A DNA stretch of 50,322 nt, the filler included, from Bipalium vagum (taxonomy: Eukaryota), in assembly GCA_037834085.1 (NCBI GenBank). It is 2 parts of 2 records of this genome, joined end to end, with 100 filler letters (N's around TTAATTAATTAA, not from the genome) between each part and the next. Parts side by side here need not be neighbours in the genome. Positions count along the whole stretch, not along the records: positions 1 to 31,152 come from JBBMKC010257794.1; 1 more part is not named here. One strand, written 5' to 3'. The notes below the pieces were generated by a model. That model had not been told where the DNA came from. It made no database searches and worked only from the letters and a program-made list of their open reading frames with translations. This document shows positions 3,864-39,034 of the stretch, one piece after another. The position numbers and the translations under genes were made by a program. The number at the start of each line of letters is the position of its first letter. The stretch's first letter is position 1.

Positions 3864-7707
<3,844 letters not shown>

Positions 7708-10006: not shown

Positions 10007-11087
10007 ATGGAAAATACAAATTCACCTACTCATGATTTCTTAGATAACTGTATAAATAAATTGATGAAAAGTATTTAGAAAAAAACTTATTATTTATTTA
10101 ATGATTTCATTTATATTTAGTTGGAGAGAAAACAAATAAAAAGAAGCAGCTTCCTGGAAAGATTTGTGACAACTCTTTGACTTTTCAAGAAATCCAAAAA
10201 TTATGTCAATTGGCAAAAGGTGTGTTTAGAGAGCAACCAGTTTTGTTGGAATTACTTACTCCTGTGAAAATTGCTGGAGATATACATGGTCAATTTACTG
10301 ATTTATTGAGACTTCTTGAATATGGTGGTCTTCCACCATCATCAAGCTACTTGTTTTTAGGTGATTATGTAGATCGAGGTGCTCAGTCAGTGGAGACAAT
10401 TTGCTTATTATTTGCTTTCAAAGTTAAATATCCTGAAAACTTTTTCCTCTTAAGAGGAAATCATGAATGTTCAAATATAAATAGGTTTTATGGGTTTTTA
10501 GATGAATGTAAAAGAAAATATAACATGAAAATTTACAAAACATTTACCGATTGCTTCAACTATCTTCCTCTTGCTGCTGTTATTGATTCAAAAATATTTT
10601 GCTGCCACGGAGGTAAGACTTTTTATAACTCATTACTAATATTTATTATTTAAAGGAATATCCCCACACTTGAACGATATTAGCATTATAAATAAATTTA
10701 AAAGGCCTGCTGAAGTTGGAGATTATGGATTTGAATGTGACTTATTATGGTCTGATCCTTCAAAATTTGTGGATTACTATGGTGCAAATGAAAGAGGGGT
10801 CAGCTATTGTTTTGGAAAAAAAGCCCTTTTGGAATTTCTTGAAAATAATGATCTGGAACTTGTATGTAGAGCTCATCAAGTCGTTCAAGATGGATATGAA
10901 TTCTTTGGTAATAGGAAGCTTGTCACAATCTTTTCAGCCCCAAACTATTGCAACGAATTTGATAATGCAGCTGCGCTTATGAGTGTTGATGAAAACTTAC
11001 AATGTTCATTTCAAGTAAATATTTGACTTTTTTTATTTTTCATAATTTAAAAATATTATTTTTCAGATTCTCAAGCCAACCAATTAA
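10007..11087 (+). CDS. PP1: Divergent PP1 catalytic subunit paralog lacking the C-terminal tail (311 aa), 4 exons
   Basis: Exons 10007-10070, 10121-10612, 10656-11014 and 11067-11087; introns 50, 43 and 52 nt, all GT-AG; 936 nt total, no internal stops. Translation runs [35 protein letters not shown]...GDIHGQ...GDYVDRG...LRGNHE...CCHGG...[13 protein letters not shown]...SAPNYCNEF...[10 protein letters not shown]. Confidence 0.93.
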
Positions 11088-12164
11088 TTCTTTTTAATAG
11101 AGATTTCTATTTATCTTTAGTCAAGATATATTTTTATAAAGCTATAATATATATATATATATATTGAAAATTATTGTTTTGATTGGATATTTAAAAACTG
11201 TGCGGCTGAATTTTATTAGTCAGAGTTAAACATTGATTTTATTGACTGATATTTACAAATACATTGAGGCATTTAATTTTATAAATTGATATAATTTTAA
11301 AAAGATTTTTTATAGGTTTAATTTTTTTTAAAATTGACTGTCTACTTGAACAATCTACGTGATCTTTTCAACATTTTCTAAAATAATAAAAATGAATTGT
11401 CAATAAAAATTTCTTCAACACACAATCAAAAATCGATCACACTAAAAGTCACTTAGAAAAACCTTAACAGTACAGTACCCGTCGTAGCTCCTGTCACATA
11501 GAAGACATAAGTACAATATTAACTGTTAAGGGCTTCAAACGTCTCTTAGAATTTTGTGGCAATTCACTTCGGACTCCAACTATTTAAATACTATTTTGGT
11601 CATATCAGTCGTAAACTTGCTTGATTTATGGGGAATGTTAATTCCCCTTTTAGATCTTAAATTATAAATCGGTCACTAAAACCTGTTCTAATCTTACTAA
11701 TTTAACTTCACCATTGTCAAGATTAGGACCTTATAAAAAATAATAAATTGACTTTTATCTTTTTAATTAAATTTTCATCATTATTTTATTATTATTACTA
11801 CTACACTTCTGACCCTTTTGTGGTCTTAATAATTAATCTAATAATCTAGACACTTTTGTTGCGTTAACATGTAATTTTTGTATCAGAGTTAACTGGGATA
11901 TCTTTGACTAATCCGTCAGAATTTTGATTTTGAAAATCAATAGAATTTTGATTTTTCATTAATCAGTTTTGAGTAGTTTCAGGTTGTTGAATTTTATATG
12001 ATTTTCGTGTGACAGGAATTAACTATAGGTACTGTGAGGGCTTGGTCGTTTTAATCAAATCGGTTTGTATCATGTAACAATCCAAAGACAAATCAACATC
12101 TAGCCATATTCTGTTATTATTTTTTCACAATCATAGAAAAATTGATTAATTAACTGTTTGTGAT

Positions 12165-12927
12165 TAACGTCCGCAGACTGCAAGGATCAAAGTATAGTCC
12201 AAAATATACCACGAAAATGGTGAAATTTGGAGGTAATAGTATAATGGTTTGGGGTGCAATTAAAGAAAATAGCACCAGAGTTCTGGTAAGGTGTCTGAAT
12301 ATGATGAATTCAGATGCCTACAAGGATTTCTCCAGATATATGATGCAGAGAATATATTTCAACTCCATGCCACAAATCAATATTGGTAAATTCTTTTTTG
12401 GACATGAAAAAATCTGGGTACTCAGTGATTGGCCGATTTAATCGCCAGATTTGAATATAATTGAGCCGTTATGGGCTGACCTAAAAGCCAGAGTCCAGAG
12501 CTTGAAGGCCGACAAATATTGAGGCACTGTGGAAAAATTTGAAGGATCAGTGGGCTCCAACATCTAAAATTAAAAATCTATATGAAAGCATGCCAAGAAG
12601 GATGCAAGAGGTCATTGAAAATAAAGGTACTGAATTCGAGTATCGCGATTGTTCATGAGGTTGACTTTTTATTATTATGTGTTTGATCATTTGAAATGTA
12701 AATAAAAGATACTTTATTGACGTTTTAGTCTTGTATTCAAAATGACTTAAAAACTGATGTTTCTGAACAAATCTGTTTTTCTACATTTCCAAAAATTTTA
12801 CTTTGGGAATTTTTGATTGGAAACATATTTTATCATATATTTAAATATAGACAGGATTAAAGATTTAAAGTAATCATCATTTTATCGAAATTTTAGAGGT
12901 GGCCCAAAACATATGGACGGCATTGTA
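12165..12927 (+). mobile_element. 5'-truncated Tc1 element with right TIR and TA
   Basis: VKFGGNSIMVWGAI...DWPI*SPDLNIIEPLWADLK...SMPRRMQEVIENKG. The terminal GGCCCAAAACATATGGACGGCATTG (12901-12925) is followed by TA. Confidence 0.85.
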
Positions 12928-14099
12928 TTAGTAAAGCGCAACAATTTCAATTTGTCCTTAAATTCAAAATTTATAATTTAAAAATGCACTTTTTAATAAC
13001 TTTTGTAAAACCTGTCAAATTATCTGATTCAAACAGGATATATTAATTAAGAAATTGAGGTTTTTATAATTCTTTGTTCAGTGAATAATAGTCAACTATT
13101 ATTATATTTTATTATCTAAAAATCTTTTTGAATTTATTATTAACTATAATTATTTGAGAATTCATTAATGTAAGCATGTAATTAATTTATTATTCATTTA
13201 ATCTTGTGTTAAAATGCATATACCAGAAATATTTTCATTTAAGTATTTGAAAAAAAATTAATTTCTTTCGAACTTTTCGATTTTTTTTAAAGAACATTAC
13301 ATGTTTTGAAACCATATAACTATCCTCAAGAAACAATATAATTAATTATATGAACTACAAAAATAAAATTTATAATTAAAAATATTTAGTTTTACTTAAC
13401 TGATTTTATGAATTGTTTAAATATTTCACAATATAATTGAAAGAAGTTTAATGAAAAAAAATATTAATTCAAGTAAGTTTTATTTTTAATTTCCTTAATA
13501 AACGAAAATATATAAAATTTTCGATGAAATCGAAATAACTATAAATAATGATTTTTAATTAAAATCGACCATTGTTTTTCTACATCAATATAAATATATT
13601 AAATATAATTTATGAAAATCGTATAATGTGATTTATTTTTGTTTTCTATATTATTCACCAGTTTCAAATTTATTGAAGAGTTTATGTGTCTCAATTTATT
13701 TTAAGGTAGCTATTATTGATCATTGTTCTTTTTGGTTTAAATCAATTATTTTAAAGTTTTTAAAATCTAAAAATCTATTTGAATTGGTTTCAAATATAAA
13801 TCTTAGTAATTTATGAAAGTTTTACTTTTTCTAAAAATATATTTAATATTTTGATTTCTAAAAACAAATAAATAGATGACTATCATTGCACAATGTGTAC
13901 AACATTTAAGCCGTTTTATTATGATATTGCAATGTTTTATAAAATTTGACTGAGAAAACTAACAGAAATATTAGTATTTTGGTGAAGAAAGTAATTTAAT
14001 TATATTAAGACTAAAAATGTGAAATGAATCAAGTGTTTTACGATTTAATAATTCATTAGGATTATTTTCCTTTTGTTTCAGATTGATATTTTGGAAAAT

Positions 14100-17000
14100 A
14101 TGCAAAATTTAACAGTCAGGGAAGAAATCTACGAACAGTTTCTTGCATTTAAATCAAAAGTGAAACCTAATTTATCAAATGATGATTTCATCAAACTTTT
14201 AATGAACCGATTTGAAAGCTGTTGCTCGAAACTTAATTGTAACGGAACGTATTCGTGAGTATTATAATTGACAATTATTTCTTAAAATATGCTATTAAAA
14301 GATTTAAACTTAATTATTATTATTGATTTTGGATTGGAAAATTTTAATTATTAATTCACATATTATTATGATTAATCCGGTAAAATATTAATACTGGTAT
14401 TGATTTTAGAAATGGAGTGAGAGAAACTTCAGAAATCAATTCGTATGTAAGTCCAATTAAATATTTATAATTCTTATGTTAATAATAAAATATGTAAGTT
14501 CTTTCGTTCTGGCTGTGTATGCTTATTTTCTAGATTTGCTGATTTTATTTGTTTTCTTTCATTGCTTTTCTCTATATGATATAAATTAGTATATGTATAT
14601 ATCAGTAATTGTCGTAATGCGATTCGTCGTTTTGATAGCGGCAAACCAGCAGCAGCATCCATCATCATCAACATCATCAAGGCGGCGATTGTTGATGCAT
14701 CATCGATCGTACATATTAACCATATTTTATAATCTGACACACTAGTTTTTTATTTATTCATTATGTCGTCATTACCATTTTCTGCCTCTACTTCTACCAT
14801 TACTAATTTAATAAACTAACAAAGTAAATAAAAAAAATTAATAATAATCAATACATATAATCTCGAAATTTATTCGCGTTGAAATTTCAAACTATTTGCC
14901 AATTTTTGATTGTCCTGTGGATTTTTGTTTTCAAAATTGCAGAAATCTGTCTCTTGATGTCAAGAGTCGTAGTAGAGTTTTAATTTTTTTGTTATAAATT
15001 TCCTTTTCAAGATTTTCTCAACGGGAAACTCAGATTCTTAAATAATATTCTCATTGTGTTACGTTATTGACAATTTCCGAAGTGCAAATATTTTATGATA
15101 TTTGTTTTCTTATTTTACTTATTCCGTAAACTATAGATATATTTTGGAGAAATTTTATTATAAATGTACGTTTTCCTAACTGAATATTTTTTAAAGAGAT
15201 TATGTTTTTCAATATTTTATCTTTTTTACTAATATTAAAATTTTTTCTGTAATCTTTTACTTTTCAAATTATTCCTCTATTTTTGGGCGCCACAAACAAA
15301 TTCTTTGCTGACAGAAATCCCCATTGGATTTTTTATTTAAATTTAAAATTGAATAAAAATAATTTAATGTCGATGTTAAAATTGAAGTTGAAATTTATTT
15401 TTGATTTTTTTAGATTTTAAAAAAGCCATTTTATAGCGAGAAAAAGAAAAATATTATCTCAAAAAATGTACTTTAATGATATCAATATATTTACAAGTAT
15501 TAGAAATTTTAATTAAAAACATTTTCAATGTTTTTTATATTTCTAAAAAGAAATGATTGCAATAAATTTTGAATAATAATATTTTTTTATTTTAATTTTA
15601 TAAAAATAAATATAAATTAAAATGAGAGAGATTTAATTAAATTAAAAACTATAAGAATATTTCAATTTATTTAAAATAATTGACTGGAAAAATGTCAGAA
15701 TTTTTTACTTCATAACGTTTTAAAAAATTAAACCAAATCGCAAATTTTAATAAATTTTTAATATACAATTTAATTTCTTTATTTTATAAATAGTTTTACT
15801 TAAAATTTTATTTCATAAAAATCCCGATAATGCATATAATCCTTTTCATTAAATTGCTATGCGATCTCAGTCATCTCAAAATATAGTTTTATTTAATATT
15901 TTTTTCTGTTAAGTCATTGGTAAATTTATTTATGAGAATGTCATCCTTAAATTTTCGTTGAAGTCCATCGTTTTTTCTAGAATTATTTTTTAAATTGTAA
16001 AATTTTTTTTTGCTATGTGACTAAGAGTTTTAATACATGTGTTACATTTTATATTAGATTATAAGAAATTTTTGAATTACTGGTCAAATATTTTTTTATT
16101 GATCTGAATTATAGGTCTTCTTTATTTGGTTATAGATTTGGCATGGATTTTTCACGATTAGAAAATTTCCTTTTTATTTCATTGATCAAGTAAAATTAAT
16201 TTCGTGTCATATTTTCCATATCATTAGAAACAACGTATAATACCTGAAAATATACTAATTACAAATTATTATTTTACTTTATAGGTATTATACATAATTT
16301 CTTTGTTATTTGTACAAATTCATTTTAGAAAATAATTATTTTTGATATTGAATCAAAAACAATAGTTTATTAAAACTTAAGTAAAATCAATTTAAAAAGT
16401 TGTGAAAAGAAATTAGAAAGAAAAGTATTTCATTATTATAAACTAAGTATATTAGAAATAGTTTTCGATTTTGTGTACTTAATACAAAAATATTAAGTAA
16501 ACTTCATTGTTTGAAATTGTAAGAAATTTCCTTCTTCCATCTTTGTGAATGGAGATTGTCGAGATAGTTGAAAATAATGCATTTTACAATTGAGGAGATG
16601 ATGTTGAAAATAATCCAGCAATCATTTGTTTTCAAGACTAGTTTACAGAAAATTGAAACAAACGAATTTACATAATACTTTGTATTTTCTATTGAGATAA
16701 AAGTAGATATCATATATCGAACCAATCTATAATGTTGTTGATAAAATATATTCTTGAATAATTATCATAAGATATTAGTAAAGTTTTAATACAAATTCTA
16801 TGGTCAATTTACATAAAAATATTTCCTGTTATATTTACTATCACTACATTAAATAAATTTTGGGTCAAAGGAATTTTAATTGGGGATCTTAAAATTAAAA
16901 TTTCTCCATTATGGAATGTGTAACGAAATTAAAAAATAAGTGGTAATTGACAGTATTTTCCAAGAAATCAAAATATTTTAAAATTCCAAATAAAATAAAA

Positions 17001-20000
17001 ATTAAGAAAAAAATTATTTTCATTGAATTTTTAAGATTCGATTTCAATTTTTCTTACTTGTTTTTATTTTTTCTACACATGAGATATAATTTATAGATGT
17101 GAATTTTTTATTTTAAATTAATTCAAAGAAATTCCAACACGTATGTCAATTTGCTTGAATTAGTATTTTACAAACATTAATTGAAATTAAAAAGAATTTA
17201 ATTATTTTTAATAGTACATTTTTTGCATTGAAAGATGACCCAAAATTTCTTTTATGTCAACATTTGGAATAATTTAGTTTATTAAGAGGTTAATTTTAGA
17301 TTTCATATGGTTGAAAATGTTCACAATTTAAATTATGAATAATATTAATAAAATATCCAATCATCTGTTTTCATAAAAAACTCTTATTGGATTCTACCTA
17401 ACAGTAATGTTTACAATATTTAATAGTTAGGTGATAAAATAAATCTTTGAGCTTTATTTTTGTAATCTGATAGAAATTTGATAATTTTTATATACTTAAT
17501 CTTTCACAAGCTTTATTTGAAAAAATTGTTCTTAACACGATATCTTGATCTTTGAAACATAATACTTTTAACTATTAAAACATTACTAAATATCTCATTT
17601 ATAATTAACATATATGTATTTAATTATGTTTGTAAACGAATTTTATTAAAATTTTCAAATTCTTTATACATTTTTCCATGTTTTATTATATAATTCAGTA
17701 TTCATAAAAATAATTAGCAAGAGAATTTTCTTGGTTATTTTAATTGGTACATAAGAAAAATTTCAAATGTAAACAAATTGCCACTTTTTTCTTCTGCAAT
17801 GATTACAAGAAATTTTATAATTATTTATCTCAACAGTTTCAATACATGACTTTTTCATATATCAAGCTATAAACACAAAAATACATTTTGAACTATAATT
17901 ACTTTTTATCTAATTGTTTTCCTTTCAAAGTTTTATTATTTTTTTCAAAATAATTACAAACAAATTTTGAGAATAATATTTGAAAAAAATACAAAGTTAA
18001 TATTAATTGTTAATATTTAAAGTTTTTGTTTTTTGCCTGAATTTTATTTTCCATACTTTAATACTACAAAAGTATCTGAAAATTTTATTAATCTTCGTAC
18101 AAAAACTATTTGCTGACAATAATTGTTTTTTGTAAATTCTCAGTAATTTTAATAGCGTAATAAAATATGGTTATTTAATTTTAGTATTAATTTCCAAATT
18201 GACACATTTATGGTTATATCACAAATTTTGTGTAAATTATTTTTGATAAATAGGACTTAAATCAGTTATGGCTATTCTTCTAAAAACTCAATGTTTTACA
18301 TAAGCTTAATATATTTTTAAAATGGAATTTTAAAAATATATAATGAATAAAATCTAAATATAAATTTTTTTCTTTTCACGAAAGTTTTCTAGAGCTCAAT
18401 TTTTACCTCAGAATAACTAATAATTCAAAATAAGTAAAAATTTTAATACTGTAATGTATATTTATCAATTTAAAAATTGTGATTGCATATATGAGGTTTT
18501 TGAAAAAACGTGTATGCTTAGGTGTTTGTTCACAAAAATAATTATTAATTACATTAGGATTTTCTTAAATAAAATATTACGTAACTTTTTCATATAATCT
18601 TGATTTAGTGTCTGAATAATACAATTCATAATTAGAGATAAATAAAGCTAATTATTTTTGAAATTACTGCATCACTAGTTACATGTTTAATTAATTGCCT
18701 CGAAAACCGTTTTCGGCGAATTTTCCATTCAGATTTGATGATTTTCAACTTGAATTTTTTTTATTTCTTGAAATATTAACCCACAATTTGTGAGGAATGT
18801 TTTTATAAAGTATCTAAAACAAAAAAATTGATGTGTCATAAATTTATTCCGACAAGCAAAACACTTAACCTTTAGAGAACGTCTCCAATCTTATCAAGAT
18901 ATTATATAGGGGGTTAATAGCATATTTTAAAGAGAAGTCATTTAAAAATTCTTTGTTCGATTTTCTCAATATTTTAATTAAGGGTTTTAAAAATATTTTC
19001 TGTAGCTTTTTGTATATACTTAAAATTTTCTAATTTATTTTTTTCTAATTTCATAAATATCTTTGTAATATTATTTCTTTTAGTAAGTTTATTTCTTTCA
19101 AAATTTATCAATATATCTGTATTATACATTTTTAATCTAGACAGTTGCCTCAAGTTACCTATTAATATGATTCCACACATCCAAAGTGAATAAAAATGTC
19201 TTGTATAAAGTAGGAAAATTCTTAATATTATTTTGTTATTACTTATTTAAGTTCAGTACTGTTCATGTTATCGAAATTCTTATTTTTATTTTATTAGTCT
19301 TAATTGAATATTTATATTTTTGTTAAAACTATTTATTAATCTTTTTTAAAAAATTTTTTCTAATAAAAATTTTAAAAATTCCTGGTTATAATATCGATTT
19401 TTCTTCAAATTTACTTGGAACTTATTTTCAGTCTAATTTTTTAAAATTGATTAATATTATAATTGGTTTTTTTGGAAATTTCTGAAGAAAAATTAAAAAT
19501 GTATATATATTTAATTGACAATCAATATTCATAAAAAAATTTATTAAATATGAGATTAAACGTTAGTATAACTGCAATAAATACCCAAAAAAATTATTAG
19601 CAGACAATATTTATTTTCATTATTATAAATTACTTTCAATAATTGATAAAGATAAAACGAAACAGTATTGGTTAATATTTATGATAACATCTCAAAATTT
19701 ACTTAACTAATCGAGTATTTATAGACTTTTTTCTAATAAATATATTTAATTATAAATTTTAATGGTAATTAAGTTGAGATGAAAATAATTATTTTTTTTC
19801 TGTCAAATCGAAGCTTTTAAAAATATTTCTTAATATTGATTAATAAGGACAAATCAATCAATCATATGTTTTATTTCGTGTTTTATGTTTTATCCATCCA
19901 TCAATCAGTCAAATAATAATTTAATCATTAATTAAGAGCTTGATGGGTTTCATAAAATATTGACAAATTCAATAAATAAGTTCCAGAAAATATGGCAGCC

Positions 20001-22399
20001 ATGTATTAATAATGATTAATTAAAACCAATAATTTGTCAATTTTCGATACTCATTTTTCAAAATTATTTGATTTAATGAACAAGTTTAAGACATTAAGTA
20101 ATAACTAAAAATTTCAATATCGCTTGTCTTCTTGTCCAGTAGAAATAATTAGTTTCATGACGATCTCTTGCAATAATTTTTCAATAAAAACATTTATGCC
20201 AATTTATTTTAATATTTTTATTGATTTAAAAAACCTTTTCGCGAAAGTAATTATTTGTGCTGATAAAAATATAGAATCACAGTTTTTGGATATATTTATT
20301 TTCCATAAGAAATGTATTTATTCTTATAAATATTTAATGTTTAAATTTATTGATTATTAAATTTATTGATTATCAAATTAATTTATAAAATTAAATTATT
20401 AATAAATTAATTCTATGATACAAATATTAACTTTAGAAATACAAATAAAATTTCATTTAAGAGCCCTTTCCTATTTATAACTTGACATTTATTATGATTA
20501 TTTTTAATGGAATATTTATATTTGTGTCAATCTGTTAATAGATATTTTTCTTTGAATTATATAAATCGAATACTTTTGAAATTAAACTGAAGTTAAAAAA
20601 AAACTACATTTTTAGAAAGAAAATTTTGTTCGTAGCTTTTTTGAGTGATATGCAAAAAAACATCACAATTGTCCTTTCCCGGATTCAAAATATTTTGACT
20701 ATAAGATATCTTTACAAATGTTCGATGGAAATTACAATTTGATAAACAAAATAAATATTTTCTGAAAATGAAATTTTGCTTGGATTCATAAAATAAAATT
20801 TCATGAAAATTGGCAATCAGGAAAAGATTACAATAGAACATTTGTATTTGCACTACAATTGGACAACAATATTATTTTTCTTTATACCACCTAGTGCACA
20901 CAAGAAGGTCGATTTTTAATAAAAATTTATTGTGTGGTGATCAGCAATTTCTAGTCACAAATCACTATGACCACAATTTTTGTTTTATTTTAGCTTTCAA
21001 GTTTTTGATAGAAAGGGGATGGTTCTTCAAACTACCAACACTATTTTTACAGGTTTATGATAACATATCCAAAGATTTTCAACTTATAATATACAAAAAT
21101 ATTTTGTTTTGATATTTTTAACTGACCAAAATTATTATAGACATTTTATATATAATTTTCTTTTTTAAATAATCAACACAGTTACTTACATTGTCCATTG
21201 ATATAACTGTAATGTTTAAAATGTTTTTTTTAATAATTATTTTTATTTCTAAACTTAGAAATATATCATAGACAGGACACAAGAGAAATTATGATTCATT
21301 ATTATTAAATGGTTATATATAATGTTTTTTATTATATATTGCATCTCAGTTTTTTATTTTGATCAAGTTGTAATAATTTTTTCATAAACAAACTTTTTCA
21401 GAGTCAATGATAAATTTTACGAAAATCGTCACTAAATATCATATATCAACAAGTTAAATTGAAACGAAAATGGTTTGAATAAATTATAGATGCTAATTAT
21501 TTAATATGACAATATTTAATAAATAATTTGTAAAGTAGAAAAAGTTGAATTAATGATTGAATATTGATCTCATAATTTATCGTTGTAAATCGATAATATA
21601 ATCAATGTAGATATATTAATTATCATTGCAAATAAACTTAAAATTATTTAAAGAAATCCATTTTGTTTACTTGAGAGCGAAGTAACAAAAGTTTTAATTT
21701 GTATAACGAAATTTAATATTTGATTGTTTTGTGTTTTTGAGAACAGGTTTTTGTCGGTTAAAGTTGTATTTTGATTTAATTTTCAGCATTTTACTAATCC
21801 TTTTTCTATCATTTTCATAAGTGCAGAGTGTAATGCATAAATCAGAACCATTAATAATAATGGTAATTTCTGAGGCAAACATGTTCAATGACAGACATTT
21901 GACATTTTTATATACATTTTCATTTTGTTAGAAATATTTTCTAATAAAAACTGAACTAATTTTGATTAATTAATGATTCAAAAATCCATTAATAATCATT
22001 GGCTATATATTAGATTATAACTGAAAAAATTTGACAGTCAAATTTTAGATTTTGTATGCATACCAATTATAAGGTCTGCTTGATAATAAAATTTTTATTT
22101 ATACTTCATAGAAATATGCTAATTCACGTTGCACATAGAGATTGCTTTTTGTTGCATTATATTTATGTTGTAAATGTGGAATATTTTTCCAATGACTCAT
22201 TAAAATATATTAATACTGAGTGAAAGCAGGGACAGGTTTTATTTTTAATACTTTCTGAAGGGCTAGTTATAAATTAATACCCACTTGTCGACAAAACCAA
22301 AACTGTGAGCTGATTATTTTCTTTTAATTATCTGTTGGTTTTTATGATTTGTGATCATTAAGGCATGAAAAAATAATGAACTAAAATTGTTATTTATTA

Positions 22400-22438
<39 letters not shown>

Positions 22439-25400
22439 GTTATTAATATTAATTGGAGTAATTTAAGATTCTTAGATTCTGGTGAATCATCTTCACATTG
22501 TTTTTTGGATAATTAAAAAATAATTTTCAGATTGACTTAAATTCAATTTAATTTTAATTAATATTAAAATGAAATTAGACAGGAAAAAATAGAAAAAACG
22601 AAGAGACCGTGATTTTTGTTAGCGAAAGACTTTCCTGAGCTTGATTTAATTAAAATAAGGAAAATTATTTCAATGATTAGAAAAAGTAGAGCTCTATTAA
22701 TAAGTACCCCCAAAGTGTTGATTAGAATAATGGAGAAAAGTTATGTAATTTGCATAACAAAGAAGTGATATGCTAAATTGTCACTTGTCAATGTTTTGTG
22801 TGTGTGCGCGTTTGTGTCTTATATATTTTTATATATATACGTTTTTAATGAAAATATGTTGGTGTGTATTTTCGCATGTTTGCCTGCGAGTATGTCTTTC
22901 TTCAAATAAAGCTGGCATGTAATCGTGGTTGATTATTATTCCTTTTAGGAATGTTTTCCATCTTCATCGAAAAGTTGAAACGATAATATTTTTCGAAAAG
23001 TTTGGTTGAAGAAAATTTTTTTGTTGGAGAAAGACTGTGCGTCTTTCCATTTAAATATAGATTGAGACTTTGTCAGAGTAATTCATCATGAAATCAGACT
23101 ATTTTTATTATCGTTTTACTGGGCTATTTGAGATGTCCTTTGTAGCAAGGCTGATTCATAAATGTGTCCAGATAACTGCGCATGTACTAAATGTATATTA
23201 TGTCACTGTCACAATGGAACACACGATAGAGAAAGGAAAAGTAGTCGTTCTATTTTTATTGTCTTTTTCTTTTTTATCTTCCGTAATTATTACTATTATG
23301 TAATGTTTACACGGGTCTTATGAGATAAGTTTTTTGCTGTTTTGAACTGCAGTGTTTTTATGATTTATTTTGACATGATTTTGATGAAAATAATTTCTGG
23401 TTTCTTTTGTCAATTTGTAGAAAAACAAATGACAAGCATTTTTAAAAGAAAATAAAAAATATTCCAAATTGTTTACTGACTGAAGATTTAGCGGGTATTG
23501 AATATTTCCAGATAAAATGGAGAATCTGTTTTGTCGAGATTGGTTTTAGCTAAAATATTTTAGTGGAAAGCAATTTGTAGTAGCAATGCGAAAGTTTGTC
23601 ATACGTCGAAATTAAACCATTCTATATATGTATTGAAATATAATGAGATATATTGTAATATTTTTTTAAGTGAATTTTTTTCGAATTATTCAATGTTGCT
23701 ATGGAAACCATTTAATAAACTTATTTGATGTGTTTTATTTTGGATGCCTAATTTATTTCTCAGATATTTTATAGGTGATTGATATTGATTTTTCCTTTTT
23801 ATTTTTGTACTTGGACTAATTGAATTAAGTGTTATTATTAGTTTTCATTTCGTTAAATACTGATGATATTGAAATTAATTCAGCAATTTTTAGGCTAAAT
23901 TTCACTACTAAGATTTGATAATTAAATGAAATCGAAAAAATTAAATTATTAAAAATATCTTTAAAATTTTTAATATTCAGAATTTTTTAAAAAATCATAT
24001 ATATAATTCTACATTTAGCTAAAGTTTTTTAAAATAATGTTATCATTTTTCAATAATTTACACAATTAATTAATTATTTCAATCAAACTTAATTTTTATT
24101 AATTATATTTATCACGTTTTAATCAATGAGGTTATAAATATTTTATAAATTACTCAGTATAACAAAGAAATGACTGCTTAATTTGAAGAAATTTTATTCT
24201 ATTTGAATTGGTCATTTTCAATTAGTTTTTAAAGGATGTAGTCAAAATGGATGTTTATTATTTAAAGCAATAGAATTATTAGAATGTGGAATCATAAATA
24301 TTATCTTAGTGAACAATGGTTCATACAATAAAATAATAATTAATAAACCTATACATGATTATAATTATAAACTTTATTAATAAAAATTTCCCACTACATT
24401 GCAAATTTGTGACATAAAATGGAAATAATTTTTGATAATTTGTGAATATAGTTGGTTTATAAATTTTATTAAAATTAACAAATATTGTAATATTTATTCA
24501 AAATGTTTCATATTTTAAACATTTTGTGTCTCCTTACAATTAATCGGAGAATCTAGATAATTTTTCGAATTTGATAATAACTTGAAAATATTGATAATTT
24601 TTGACAGTTTTGATATTTAGTTATGATCTTCTAATATTAGTGTAATTAAGTTCAAAAGTGAAAAATTGACAAGAATTTCTAAATATAAATAGATGTTAAA
24701 ACAATTTCAGTGTTTGGGTTTGGTAATAAAAATAAAATAATATAAATTTGTATTAGAAAACAGTGAAAATAATCATTGAATTAATATTTTGTTTTTGTAA
24801 TTAATTAAATATACGATTTTAACTTTATGAACATGAATAAGTTTTAAGAATCCTTTTTTTAATAATCTTAAACATTTTTTGATGATACATGTATTTGGAA
24901 AAATATTTATTTACACTCTTATGGTCGATGATGAAAATATTTTAAAAATTTTTAATTCCTAAATACTTTATTTTTATTTAATTGACATCCTTTACACATT
25001 TCGTTAAAATAAATTACTGTACTTTATTAAATAGGATACCATTTTAATAATTAAGTTCAATTATTTAATTTTGATTTAACGTTCCCTATATTTTTTAAAA
25101 TAAAAATTAACTATGGAAATTATTCTTTGATTACATATATATATTTTCACTTTGATATTCAAGGAATTTGAGAAATTTTTTAACAGGTCCCAGAAGAATC
25201 AGCAATTGAAAATAACCCTGTTTCTTTTCAACATTCTATAGAAAAGCAGACCAATTCAAGTTCTTCCTCCAATACAATAAATAAAGAAAACACATCAAGT
25301 CAGAATTATAGATGTAGGTTCGTCTGTCCAGAATGTAAATATTCATCCTCTAGTAAGGAGGAAATTGAAAATCATTTTGATGAGTCTCATGATCTCAGTG

Positions 25401-26764
25401 GAACATTTCCTTGTACTTGCGACCAGTGTTTTAATAACATGTCTCAATTCTTAGCTCATTATATTATCTGTCCAATAGCCGCCACAGATTTACAAAATAA
25501 CTCTAACGATGAACAGATAACTGAGAATGAAAGCATTCTTGATGAAGAAATAGAACATTCAGATCCTGTTTTCGAATCTCGTAGTCCACTTACACATTCA
25601 ACTGATCAAACACCTATACAAAATGAAGATTCAGATGACATACCAGTGGATTATACAAATCCAATAAATCTGGTTAAAAGTGAAATCAAAGATTCTATTG
25701 CTGATTATTCAAATACTTCATTTAATATAAACTTTTCTTCCCATTCTGTCAAACCATGTCTTCCAGTTAATATAAACACGTCTTCTCCAAATAGTCAGGA
25801 TCAACCAAAAAGGTCAGGTAAGATATATGAGTGTGAGCACTGTGAAAAAAGCTTTAAATCAAAAGGTCTTTTAGACCAACATAAACATTTACACTTTCCT
25901 CCTAGACATGAATGTGAATATTGTGGTCGACGTTTTCGTTGGCCACCTCAGTTTTATACACATAAACAACAATGTAGTAAACGTAAGCTAGCTTTAACTG
26001 ATTCTCAAGATTCCAATAATGCTAAGAAATCTAACTTTAACTTTTCACAAATTAATAATTCATATAATCACACAGAATCTCGCATTCAGCAGACTCATAA
26101 AGTATATCCGCATCAAATTCAAGATCATTGTTTGTGTGGCTTTAAGGCAAATATAACAGAAATGTATGAACATAAGAGAACATGTATTACTTCAGCAAGA
26201 GCAATGATTTTGCAAAAAATCATCGATTACAAGTCAATGCAAAATCCATCTTTGATTTCCAATCTCCACTCTGTTAATGGTGGTGGAACAACAAAATCTT
26301 TAATTTCTAATATGCAATCTGTTAATGGTGGCGGAACAAATAACCAATCTTTGATTTCAAATATGCAGCCTACTAATGGTAGTGGGTCAAGCAATCCTTC
26401 CGTTCATTCTGTTATTCAAAATTTCATCCAAAATTCTACAAGTAATAGTAGCTTGACAAATTTTCCAGTGTTATCCAATGCAGATAATATAGGGAAATCT
26501 CAACAGACCACTTCTATTGGTGCAGTCACACAAATCCAAACATCAACAGTAATAAATGAAGAAAAACCTTTTGAATGTGATTTTTGCGATAGTCGATTTA
26601 TGACAAAAATCAGCTTGAAGCAACATTTGGATGGTAAGCATTCAGATCAGGCCAAATATTGTTGTGAAAAGTGTGGAAAGGGCTATTTCTGGAATGCTTC
26701 ATATAATTATCATAAAAAGAAATGTATGATAAAACCACTGACTGTGACAAATTTTAGTAACTGA
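14100..26764 (+). CDS. Multi-zinc-finger protein (about 589 aa) with N-terminal RHH-like segment; 3 coding exons
   Basis: Exon 14100-14254 (upstream acceptor ttttgtttcag ending 14081, donor GTGAGT, phase 2), exon 14410-14446 (acceptor ttttag, donor GTAAGT, phase 0) and exon 25187-26764 (acceptor tttttaacag, phase 0, in frame with the ORF at 25439). Phases match throughout; 1770 nt total. The terminal exon is certain; its linkage to the 5' exons is inferred from phase and splice-site quality. Confidence 0.72.
22400..22438. repeat. (ATT)n microsatellite
   Basis: About 13 ATT units. Confidence 0.9.
25187..26764 (+). CDS. Terminal zinc-finger exon with 7 predicted fingers (C2H2 and C2HC types)
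   Basis: Fingers: CPECKYSSSSKEEIENHFDESH; CTCDQCFNNMSQFLAHYIIC; CEHCEKSFKSKGLLDQHKHLH; CEYCGRRFRWPPQFYTHKQQC; CLCGFKANITEMYEHKRTC; CDFCDSRFMTKISLKQHLDGKH; CEKCGKGYFWNASYNYHKKKC. They are separated by S/N/Q-rich low-complexity linkers. Confidence 0.93.
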   Translation, partial: VPEESAIENNPVSFQHSIEKQTNSSSSSNTINKENTSSQNYRCRFVCPECKYSSSSKEEIENHFDESHDLSGTFPCTCDQCFNNMSQFLAHYIICPIAATDLQNNSNDEQITENESILDEEIEHSDPVFESRSPLTHSTDQTPIQNEDSDDIPVDYTNPINLVKSEIKDSIADYSNTSFNINFSSHSVKPCLPVNINTSSPNSQDQPKRSGKIYECEHCEKSFKSKGLLDQHKHLHFPPRHECEYCGRRFRWPPQFYTHKQQCSKRKLALTDSQDSNNAKKSNFNFSQINNSYNHTESRIQQTHKVYPHQIQDHCLCGFKANITEMYEHKRTCITSARAMILQKIIDYKSMQNPSLISNLHSVNGGGTTKSLISNMQSVNGGGTNNQSLISNMQPTNGSGSSNPSVHSVIQNFIQNSTSNSSLTNFPVLSNADNIGKSQQTTSIGAVTQIQTSTVINEEKPFECDFCDSRFMTKISLKQHLDGKHSDQAKYCCEKCGKGYFWNASYNYHKKKCMIKPLTVTNFSN

Positions 26765-27999
26765 CATTTGCAAAAATGTAAAGATCGTTTCTAGTCTTTG
26801 ATTGTTTGTACTAAGTCGAGTTGAGAACAATAAAAACCTTACACTTGTAAGGACCAATTCTATATTTGTGTTTATAAGTTTCAATTGCAAATTCGTGTCA
26901 AATGACGCATTTACCCAACGATATATTTTATTTTTTTCGTTTTTCTGTATGTCTTTACTTTGTAAATAAAATTATTTTTGTGTCTAATTATGCTGAAAAT
27001 ACGTATTATAAAAATAAGACAACAATTTCTATTAAATCATTAATATATAATATTACCAACAATTGTTATTGTATTATTATTGTATAGATTTATTGTTGTT
27101 TTGTCTTATTACCTCAAGGATGTGTCTTCAATTGTTGTTGTTTTCATACTAAATGTGGTTTCTCTACTGTTATTGTGACTTATTATTAGTCTTTATTTTT
27201 ATTATTACTGGTCAAAATACATGATCATTCCATTTCTGTATTTATTTCAATAGGCCTATTGTTAATTTTGTATAAATTTTATTTCTTTTAATTATCTATT
27301 GTCTATTGAAAGTAGTGCAACTTCAATATGTGATTTCAGTTGGTTTTGTTGTAAATGGTTGTCGTAAATTTTGCAGTTTTCATAAAATAGAAGTAACACT
27401 GTTGAAATTGAAATGTATGTTTTAATGTCGATCTTTATTACTTCTATATACTCATGTAATATATACGTTGATGTTGTTATATCCCTTGATTAAATGCTTC
27501 CAGACATCTTTTGCCAAAGAATTTAACCAATGCAACATTTTTTTTCATTTGAAATAACGGATATCTGTTCCAGTTTGTTTTGTAATATATTTTGAGCTTT
27601 TTTATTCGGTTTTGTTATTAATTGTCTTACTCTTAAATTTTGAGTTGGTTTCATGTCAATTTTCGAAGATCGTTTATCTATTTAGATAACAGTTAGTCAA
27701 GATAGACGCAAAATATAAAAAAATTTGAGTTAATAGTACGAAAATAGGAAATAAAAAAGGAATGTTAATTTAGATTAATTTGTGAGACCAAGTTGTTTTA
27801 CTAAAATAGGCTATTTATTGTTAAATTATTAGGTTTTAGAATTTTTGGCACATTTTGCTTAATAAATTAAAATTGTAAATAATTCAAAGAACTTATTTAA
27901 TGATCATTTAATATTATATAGCATTTAAGATCTCATTGCTTTCTTTAAAGTGTTAATCTATTTTGATTTTAAATTAAAAATTGACTACCTTTTTCCCAC

Positions 28000-28260
28000 T
28001 TTAATGTGGGATGTCGTGTCTCGATTTACACAAAATTTATTTTTGAGTTTTGACTCGGCACAAAAGGAGCTGAAACTGCTCAAAAAGTTAGAGGTTTTGG
28101 GCCATGGTATTGTAAATCTGTCAACAGTACGATGTTTATACCAGAAGTTTCGTAATGGAGATTTATCCCTTGAAGATGCGGAAAGAATTGGCCGTCATTC
28201 AAAATTCAAAAGTATGGGGTTTATGAAAGTAAAACAAGCAGAGTTCTCTAACTTTATATA
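28000..28260 (+). mobile_element. Mariner N-terminal HTH relic
   Basis: VLGHGIVNLSTVRCLYQKFRNGDLSLEDAERIGR matches mariner ...TVRRWFQKFRSGDLSLEDEERSGRP. Confidence 0.75.
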
Positions 28261-29489
28261 GATAGTGTAGGAAGTGGAAAACATATTCAAGACTTTTACG
28301 AAGAGGGTTCATTGCCAAGACGACGCTTCAGTAATGATTTTTAGTTCAACAAAATTAGGATTATAAAAGGGGACCCAGCGAGTTTGGGTTAGGGTTAGGA
28401 CGACCCGGGGACTCATTGTCACTCCTGCTGAGGCATTTATCTATTGTTTTTTGTGTTTTTTTCTTAATAATTTATTGGTGATAGTTAATATTATAATTTT
28501 AAAATTTGATTCGATTGCATATTTTATTATTATTCTTTGATATTTTGCGAACAGTGGAACATTTTGACGTTGTACTTATTTTTGAGTGATACTGATAGCG
28601 TGAGTGATTGAGATTTCTTTGCAGTTTTGCGTAAAAATAAAGTTTTATTGTGATGGAGTTTTGATTCAAATGGAGTTTAACTTTGTGCAGCGACAATAGA
28701 ATCGCGAACACAACAAATTAAAATGAGTTTTTGATGTACGAGTTCAAGTTACTTTTAAGTTATAATAGTAAAATGTCTAAGAACTGCTCTGTTTTTTGTT
28801 TTATATTGTTCTTTTGATTATTCTTTTTTATTGGATTGACTGGTAGGATTGGGAGCCTCAACAAATACATTCATGTTAACATCCACTTTTTCATTCAAAG
28901 AATCATTTCTGGTTTATATTTTAAGTTCATTATCCTGCGATCGAATCACTAATATCGTTTCATATTCAATTATGTATGACAATTTCTCTCAACTCTTCAA
29001 TTCTTTTTCAATTCTTCTTTTCAACTCTTTTCTTTCATTGTCCATAGTCATGTAAGCTACTGTAATTACTTTTGTCGTTTTTAAATGGTATCTTTTGATC
29101 ACTCCCTAACGGTAGCAAAAAATTTTACTCATAAAGTGTTCCCTTCGCTCGCTCATACATATTTTTATAAAAATCAACTGCAAAAAAAATTTTAATTTTA
29201 TTTTAATATTATTTATTATTTTACGGATGTCTTCTTTATCCTTTGTTTTTTTGTGGCGGCATCATTTAAAATTTTATTATTACTTTCAACTATTTTAAAA
29301 TTTTTTTTATTTGATTTTGTTAATTCAAATTGCCATTTTTGAGTAATTCAAGAAATAATACAAAATGTTTGTAAAGCTTATTATATTTTAATTCAAGATT
29401 CCTTTCTAATTCTCTTAAATTTTTTGGTCATTTTTAGAATCAATATAATAATAATATTTTAGTCACTATCCCGATAATTCCAATGACTA

Positions 29490-32274: not shown

Positions 32275-33290
32275 TTAATACTTAGTATGATTTCCTTTAT
32301 TTCTCAAAAGATTTTTCACAACGATTAGGCATACTTGAACTAATTTTTACAAAGTTCTAATGGGATTTCGTGTCATATTTCTAATTTTTTCTATAATCAT
32401 TGGTTTTGTAGAAATTCTATATTTCCTGACCTTTTGTTTAACATAATCCCAAAGATATTCGATCGGATTAAGACCCGGAGATTGGAAAGGCCAACCAGCT
32501 ACTGATATTTTGGTTTGAAAGAAGAAATTCTTTATAAATGCTGAAGTATGTTTCGGGTCATTGTCATGCTGAAATATAAAATTTTCTCCTAGTCCCATTT
32601 GAATAGCCGAATCCAAAAGATTTTCAGACAGAATTTTCTTATATGAAAACCTGTCCATTGTTCCATCAATAAAAATTAATGATCCCACTCCTTTGAATGA
32701 TATACATCCGCAAATTATTAATGATCTACTTCCAAATTTAACCGTTGGTTGAATATATTTTTTTTTTCAGTTTAGAGTTTGGTGGGCCCCAACATCTACA
32801 ACCATCAGAATAAATAAGTTAATTTTGTTTTCATGCCTAAATAAAACTTTGTCCCATTGTGTTAGTGTCCCAACTCAATTGCATTGCCACAGTCAACCTG
32901 GCCTTTATATTTTAATTGGTAAGACGTGATGTTTTCAATGGTACTGAGCTCTTAAAACTATTACCCTTAAGTGCATATTGAATTGTTTTGTTTAAAACAT
33001 TCTTATCTTTCTCTTTTGCTAATATTTTCGCCAGTGTTAGAAATGATATTAATGGCAATTTTTTCATTTTTAACCAGAAAGCCTTTTATCTTCATTTAAC
33101 GAACATTTTTGACATGACTCTTAATCATAACAGTCTTGTATTTATTATATTTTCTTACAATATCATGGACTTATAGACTTTGGAATTCTCGTATTTCCCG
33201 AAATATTTGTAATGGTGAGTTCATTTAGTTTTAAAAGTCGGATAATTTCAAATCTAATTGATAAATTATTTTCTTCAGTTATTATTTGCA
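32275..33290 (-). mobile_element. Near full-length decayed Tc1 (DD34E) transposase
   Basis: HTH relic (VHDIVRKYNKY), then WDKVLFRHENKINLF, QPTVKFGSRSLII, FQHD-(34 aa)-E (HDNDPKHT...SPGLNPIEYLW), ending NKGNHTKY* at 32275. Confidence 0.88.
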
Positions 33291-38122: not shown

Positions 38123-38760
38123 TACAGGGTGACCAGAAATAACCCGTCCTTAAAGTTTCAGTCATTTTACATAGAAACTAACATTTATTATAACATATAT
38201 TTTTCACAATATTAGCTAACAAAAATTTTCAAAATGTCCTCCTTGGGCTTTGATACACAGCTGAAGACGTTTAGGAAAATTATCTATGATGAGCCGCAGC
38301 TCTGCTGGAGTGAATAGATCCCATTCCCGGCACAACGAGCGTTTCAGAACATCCAAACTTTTGTGAGGTTTGCCACAAGCCCTGGACTCAAAAATTGACC
38401 AGACACTATAATCCAAAGGATTGAGATCGCACGAGTATGGAGGTCATTCTTCAGCCGTGATGAAATTCGGGAAATTTGCTTTACACCAGTCCTGCGTAGA
38501 TTTGGCTTGATGGGAAGGCGCGGAATCTTGTTGAAAAGTCCAAGATACGTTTCCAAAGTGATGTTGAGCCCAGGGTAGCACTACATCCTCCAGAATCAGT
38601 TTTTGATATATATCTTTATTGATTTTCACTCCTGATTCAATGAAAACGAGAGGGGTTTTTCCGGTTGCACAAATTCCAGCCCATACCATAACAGATTGGG
38701 GATTTTGACGATGTTGAACTATTGAAGAATTGCCCGGAGATTTTATTGACCAAATCAGTA
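38123..38760 (-). mobile_element. 5'-truncated maT (DD37D) element with intact 3' TIR
   Basis: SVMVWAGICATGKTPLVF...FQQD-(37 aa)-DYSVW...KRLQLCIKAQGGHFENFC*. Only one in-frame stop (W to TGA at 38444-38446) in about 180 codons. TA|CAGGGTGACCAGAAATAACCCGTCC begins at 38123. Confidence 0.9.
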
Positions 38761-39034
38761 GAACTTCGACACGCTGAGACTTCATCTTGATAGAAAATTA
38801 TTATTCTAAAAACACGTTTTTTGTTAGTTGAGGGATTTAATGTTCCTTTAAAGACCAGGGTAAGACCAAATTCACTATAGGAATCTACATATCTACACAG
38901 TTAAATGCATTGAATGAGGACTGAGTTTGCGCAAGATGTGGGTTAAGTGTATACCAAATTTTACAGTTATGGTGATGACTATGACTAAGTGAAATATTAA
39001 ATTTGTGATTACTAAATGTTACTAATTTAATTTT

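Follow-up and report, generated by a model that had tools for sequence, protein, structure and literature searches.

A seven-finger protein encoded on the plus strand of a 50,322-nt joined stretch of DNA from the flatworm Bipalium vagum carries a ribbon-helix-helix (RHH)-like module of ~45 residues at its N-terminus, which likely homodimerizes it; we put the probability of this reading at about 0.6. The whole stretch is referred to as the window, and all coordinates are counted along it. The RHH fold is usually presented as prokaryotic, plant TCP factors being the exception among eukaryotes that we were able to document. A conserved RHH-like unit joined to C2H2 fingers in one phylum of animals is an unannotated domain architecture, with no Pfam family covering the module. 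The analysis also corrects a gene model in a family where one third of the records are devoid of the module. It leads to the prediction of dimeric action for a regulator that occurs across the phylum, in flukes, tapeworms and their free-living relatives, and that seems not to have been studied.

Exon 1, its conservation and the gene model

The RHH-like module (residues 1–43; 14100–14228, plus strand; ~45 residues for the whole N-terminal front end) lies in the first coding exon (14082–14254, plus strand), which has an acceptor at 14080–14081, an ATG at 14100, a GTGAGT donor at 14255 and homology to the N-termini of orthologues. Its coding part, 14100–14254, amounts to 155 nt. We built a module hidden Markov model (HMM) from 16 N-termini of flukes and tapeworms, with the window sequence excluded, and exon 1 ranked first among the 2215 six-frame peptides of the window (28.9 bits, E 8.3e-8), with E 0.036 for the second-ranked peptide. 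As judged from sequence comparison, exon 1 is genuinely coding, beyond chance; it is also small and easily overlooked in gene models. Fluke and tapeworm orthologues start with a segment matching exon 1, and the mean identity over 11 flukes and tapeworms was 34% in the module, 11–23% in the linkers and 48–92% in the fingers, with F14, K18 and F30 unchanged in all 15 aligned module rows. The HMM score and the module identity bear out the conservation expected in an earlier reading of this DNA from the sequence alone (the sequence-only reading). That reading had suggested that the module may be lineage-specific; by this comparison it is older than a single species and common to flukes and tapeworms.

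The module was present in 48 of 72 family records, near the N-terminus every time, and absent from 24, many of which begin at or past finger 1. Full and module-less records were found within one species in Schistocephalus, Mesocestoides, Clonorchis, Heterobilharzia and S. haematobium; such pairs fit the loss of a small exon from gene models, though some may be real short isoforms. Some module-bearing Logan contigs are short (P0010, 2112 nt; P0064, 1840 nt), and since they are barely longer than the coding sequence, we infer that they are spliced transcripts joining module and fingers in relatives.

Downstream of exon 1, the plus strand holds intron 1 (14255–14409, 155 nt, G+C 0.17), a predicted linker-encoding exon 2 (14410–14446, 37 nt, donor GTAAGT), which restores the frame, a predicted long intron (14447–25186, 10,740 nt, G+C 0.21) and the terminal seven-finger exon (25187–26764), with an acceptor just before 25187. 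The G+C contents of the three coding pieces were 0.31, 0.32 and 0.33, above those of the introns. Both small exons, their donors and the acceptor are present as the sequence-only reading had described them, and its in-phase splice to the finger exon 10.7 kb downstream yields a stop-free frame of 589 codons (a 589-aa product) with GT-AG ends, the junction being predicted. Among 12 exon-boundary combinations, two were without stops; they differ by one G shifted across the junction, and just one of them, the model described here, has GT-AG ends. Bridging sequence is needed because the phase is 2 at the end of exon 1 but 0 at the start of the finger exon. Exon 2 was the top of five single-exon frame bridges under simple scoring (17.0 versus 13.0, 11.9, 11.7 and 11.3), the runner-up (13.0) uses the same acceptor, and one weak direct splice, from donor 14239 to acceptor 25241, likewise preserves the frame. 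Exon 2 and the junction 14446/25187 are given as predictions. The proposal that both small exons encode the RHH-like segment needs amending, as exon 1 holds all of it and exon 2 encodes linker only.

Tapeworm orthologues have ~10 additional N-terminal residues, and six in-frame codons lie 5' of the ATG in exon 1 (14082–14099), so an upstream start may exist. A candidate end of a 5' untranslated exon (13451–13478, plus strand; strong donor at 13473) has its own ATG, out of frame with respect to the main start, and candidate AATAAA sites lie 3' of the stop codon at 26829 and 26965 (within 26829–26970, plus strand). Genomic contigs of run X1 span the long intron except for a skipped 74-base repeat. 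Early in this intron, a CAG/CAT triplet stretch with higher G+C occupies 14640–14780, and beside it run X1 differs from the window at three allelic positions (14744, 14772 and 14776).

Predicted fold and mode of action of the module

The module is predicted to fold as an RHH unit. AlphaFold2 models have an extended strand at residues ~1–7, helix A at 8–21, a turn and helix B at 27–43; the strand is extended yet not assigned E, as expected without a partner. In a structure comparison, RHH proteins occupied the top 18 ranks, and overlays on solved RHH proteins gave root-mean-square deviations of 1.8–3 Å across 39–45 residues, at sequence identities of 7–20%. HHalign against RHH gave P 0.001 (0 of 200 shuffles) and aligned the strand and both helices in the same register as the overlays, in agreement with NikR and Arc. 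The column profile has an alternating hydrophobic strand and a hydrophobic helix core in the RHH register, and a Ser/Thr cap precedes helix B. The strand-helix-helix layout ascribed to this segment in the sequence-only reading is therefore recovered by both the models and the HHalign register. As a point against the assignment, no curated RHH profile of Pfam, NCBIfam or PHROGs came near its cut-off when 15 module members were scanned.

According to the part of PMC6514445 consulted, an RHH sheet is made of one strand per monomer; because such a sheet is built from two monomers, the RHH fold implies a dimer, which is here inferred from a predicted fold. The short strands of two copies would pair antiparallel into an intermolecular sheet, and the four helices would pack around F14, F30 and the adjoining aliphatic residues. 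Flexible linkers would tether two finger arrays to the dimer, and finger pairs 3–4 and 6–7 could either recognise DNA sites that occur in pairs or link two sites.

The module might also read DNA itself, acting as an RHH head as well as the dimer interface, so that one protein would have two kinds of DNA-binding domain, comparable to a plant TCP domain plus fingers; we consider this unlikely. Residues 1, 3 and 5 of the model superpose on Arc residues 9, 11 and 13, the base contacts of Arc. Polar residues (Gln, Asn, Thr, Asp) occupy the outward-facing strand positions of the window and fluke proteins, K18 is invariant, and the available part of one report presents plant TCP as a eukaryotic RHH able to read DNA (10.1101/2022.11.22.517060). 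However, these strand positions differ between flukes and tapeworms, with Pro, Ile, Phe and Ala occurring, and 5 of 8 RHH proteins have Arg or Lys at the last of the three Arc-equivalent positions, versus 1 of the 14 module rows in which that position is occupied. Helix B begins with Asp in 12 of 15 module rows, and the module is much less conserved than the fingers; net charge by itself does not discriminate. Because the strand positions are rarely basic and differ between flukes and tapeworms, and because Asp opens helix B, we prefer a homodimer scaffold to a DNA-reading module, and sequence reading probably owes little to the sheet of the module itself.

The structural ranks and the register also bear on whether the module is RHH by descent. 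It could be a convergent helical hairpin or a transposase-derived intertwined dimer of the RAG1 nonamer-binding type, or it could serve another partner protein as a docking site. This is rather improbable, since the top 18 ranks are all RHH proteins and the independent sequence-profile test gives the same strand, helix A and helix B register.

The finger array and the reach of the module

The terminal exon encodes seven C2H2/C2HC fingers on the plus strand, arranged as a pair (25325–25471), a second pair (25832–25975), a single C2HC finger (26129–26185) and a third pair (26576–26725); the zf-C2H2 family (PF00096) matched at 35 bits, over the Pfam cut-off of 25.2. The seven fingers correspond one-to-one between the window, Schistosoma, Echinococcus and Schistocephalus, with finger pairs 3–4 and 6–7 near-invariant or strongly conserved. 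The finger exon was closest to one record (71% identity) and to tapeworm proteins (31–34%). A profile search at E 1e-10 or better returned 34 proteins, of which 29 are family members, the named ones being from flukes, tapeworms and monogeneans, and five are generic finger proteins. A quick tree placed the window protein on a long branch separate from the named parasites, with weak support. Between 26230 and 26400 the finger exon contains three degenerate tandem repeats of ~17 codons each, versus about one in P0001, its closest relative. In the 270-aa Spirometra/Sparganum records P0034, P0076 and P0077, the module is joined to the last three fingers only, a form that could stem from a deletion or from a skip in the gene model; one Sparganum contig carries two copies of it. 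The paralogue P0036/P0037 has nine fingers, and no module was detected in its records, which are possibly cut at the 5' end.

In searches of limited reach, the module was seen in a single gene family. A module-only profile search, scoring 7984 candidates with shared 5-residue words required, gave 14 matches, all of them orthologues of this gene, and the module was absent from all 13 non-family proteins examined. Exon 1 alone had no match among 1.84 billion representatives, a search of limited reach that also missed true orthologues. Within this limited reach, the idea that the module recurs across many finger proteins, like ZAD, SCAN or BTB, was not supported; of the proposed RHH dimerization module, what stands is a coding, conserved segment with a predicted RHH layout, from whose fold a dimer would follow. 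A bolder view, which we hold to be doubtful, is that flatworms have a true RHH domain of prokaryotic or mobile-element origin as their own transcription-factor dimerization tag on many more genes, where it would be hidden because gene models drop tiny 5' exons and divergence exceeds the range of single-sequence search. If true, the tag would play in flatworms the part of ZAD or SCAN, and it would be a protein interface of relevance to parasites.

The likeness to lola or fruitless drawn in the sequence-only reading, by which the 5' exons would be common exons spliced to several finger exons, possibly beyond the window or in trans, is very improbable: the small exons, the long intron and one finger exon are in keeping with it, as are the three-finger Spirometra/Sparganum records and the frequent loss of the module from gene models, which suggests an intron 3' of the module in relatives too, but pattern and family HMM searches of the 50-kb window, with the long intron and 23.5 kb of downstream sequence included, found no second finger exon, and all module-bearing proteins found have the same finger family.

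The window as a whole consists of AT-rich animal DNA and contains PP1 genes and Tc1/mariner remnants. A gene for a canonical PP1 catalytic subunit (5505–7597, minus strand) and a divergent PP1-like paralogue (10105–11026, plus strand) stand head to head, their exon DNA being 71–77% alike. Transposase remnants lie at 12154–12655, 27929–28261, 32347–32766 and 38444–38797, two identified by HTH_48/DDE_3 matches and the others by eye.

Comparison with known systems

Like this gene, ZFP-1/ZFP-1-1 and FIR1 encode flatworm C2H2 proteins with free-living and parasitic orthologues. ZFP-1 has three fingers and two signature motifs in the portion of PMC5927768 seen; we rejected identity with it, as the present protein has seven fingers and both motifs are absent. 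FIR1 is POGZ-like with six fingers (PMC6321819, in part), and the gene does not fit the FIR1 description in the accessible text of PMC6321819 and PMC6821492, being set apart by description only. The gene is not named in the consulted parts of PMC6225667, PMC9522251 or PMC7408454, the first two of which, in those parts, mention many flatworm finger genes as unclassified. A full-text literature search returned, in the passages retrieved, no report in which an RHH from an animal is joined to C2H2 fingers, and none on this gene family.

The plant TCP domains form a eukaryotic RHH class that has been described, as far as the consulted part of 10.1101/2022.11.22.517060 goes. In TCP factors it is this domain, which includes a basic region, that binds DNA, whereas here the fingers are the more plausible DNA binders; no sequence similarity between TCP and the module was found.

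The prokaryotic RHH proteins (NikR N-domain, Arc/Mnt, PutA52, MazE6, ParD2 and VapB12) resemble the module in predicted strand-helix-turn-helix layout, length, N-terminal position, alternating hydrophobic strand and the Ser/Thr cap ahead of helix B. In contrast to them, the module lies in an intron-containing animal gene, is fused to seven C2H2/C2HC fingers, and has an aromatic core (invariant F14 and F30) and a strand mostly without a basic DNA-reading residue. The human proteins FREM1, ZBTB8A and EMSY reportedly have alternative isoforms with RHH domains, although our literature searches did not find this report, which is also said to describe short motifs of a similar kind in uncharacterised proteins from fish and invertebrates. 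If it exists, the module would belong, as a flatworm member, to an animal RHH group that is already described; because it may exist, we do not rate the module as categorically new.

ZAD, SCAN and BTB are N-terminal dimerization modules of C2H2 proteins. The RHH-like module differs from them in fold, has no Pfam match to them and was found in one gene family rather than in dozens of paralogues. It shares with them the arrangement of a small N-terminal domain on its own exon, followed by a disordered linker and then the fingers, and, likely, self-association.
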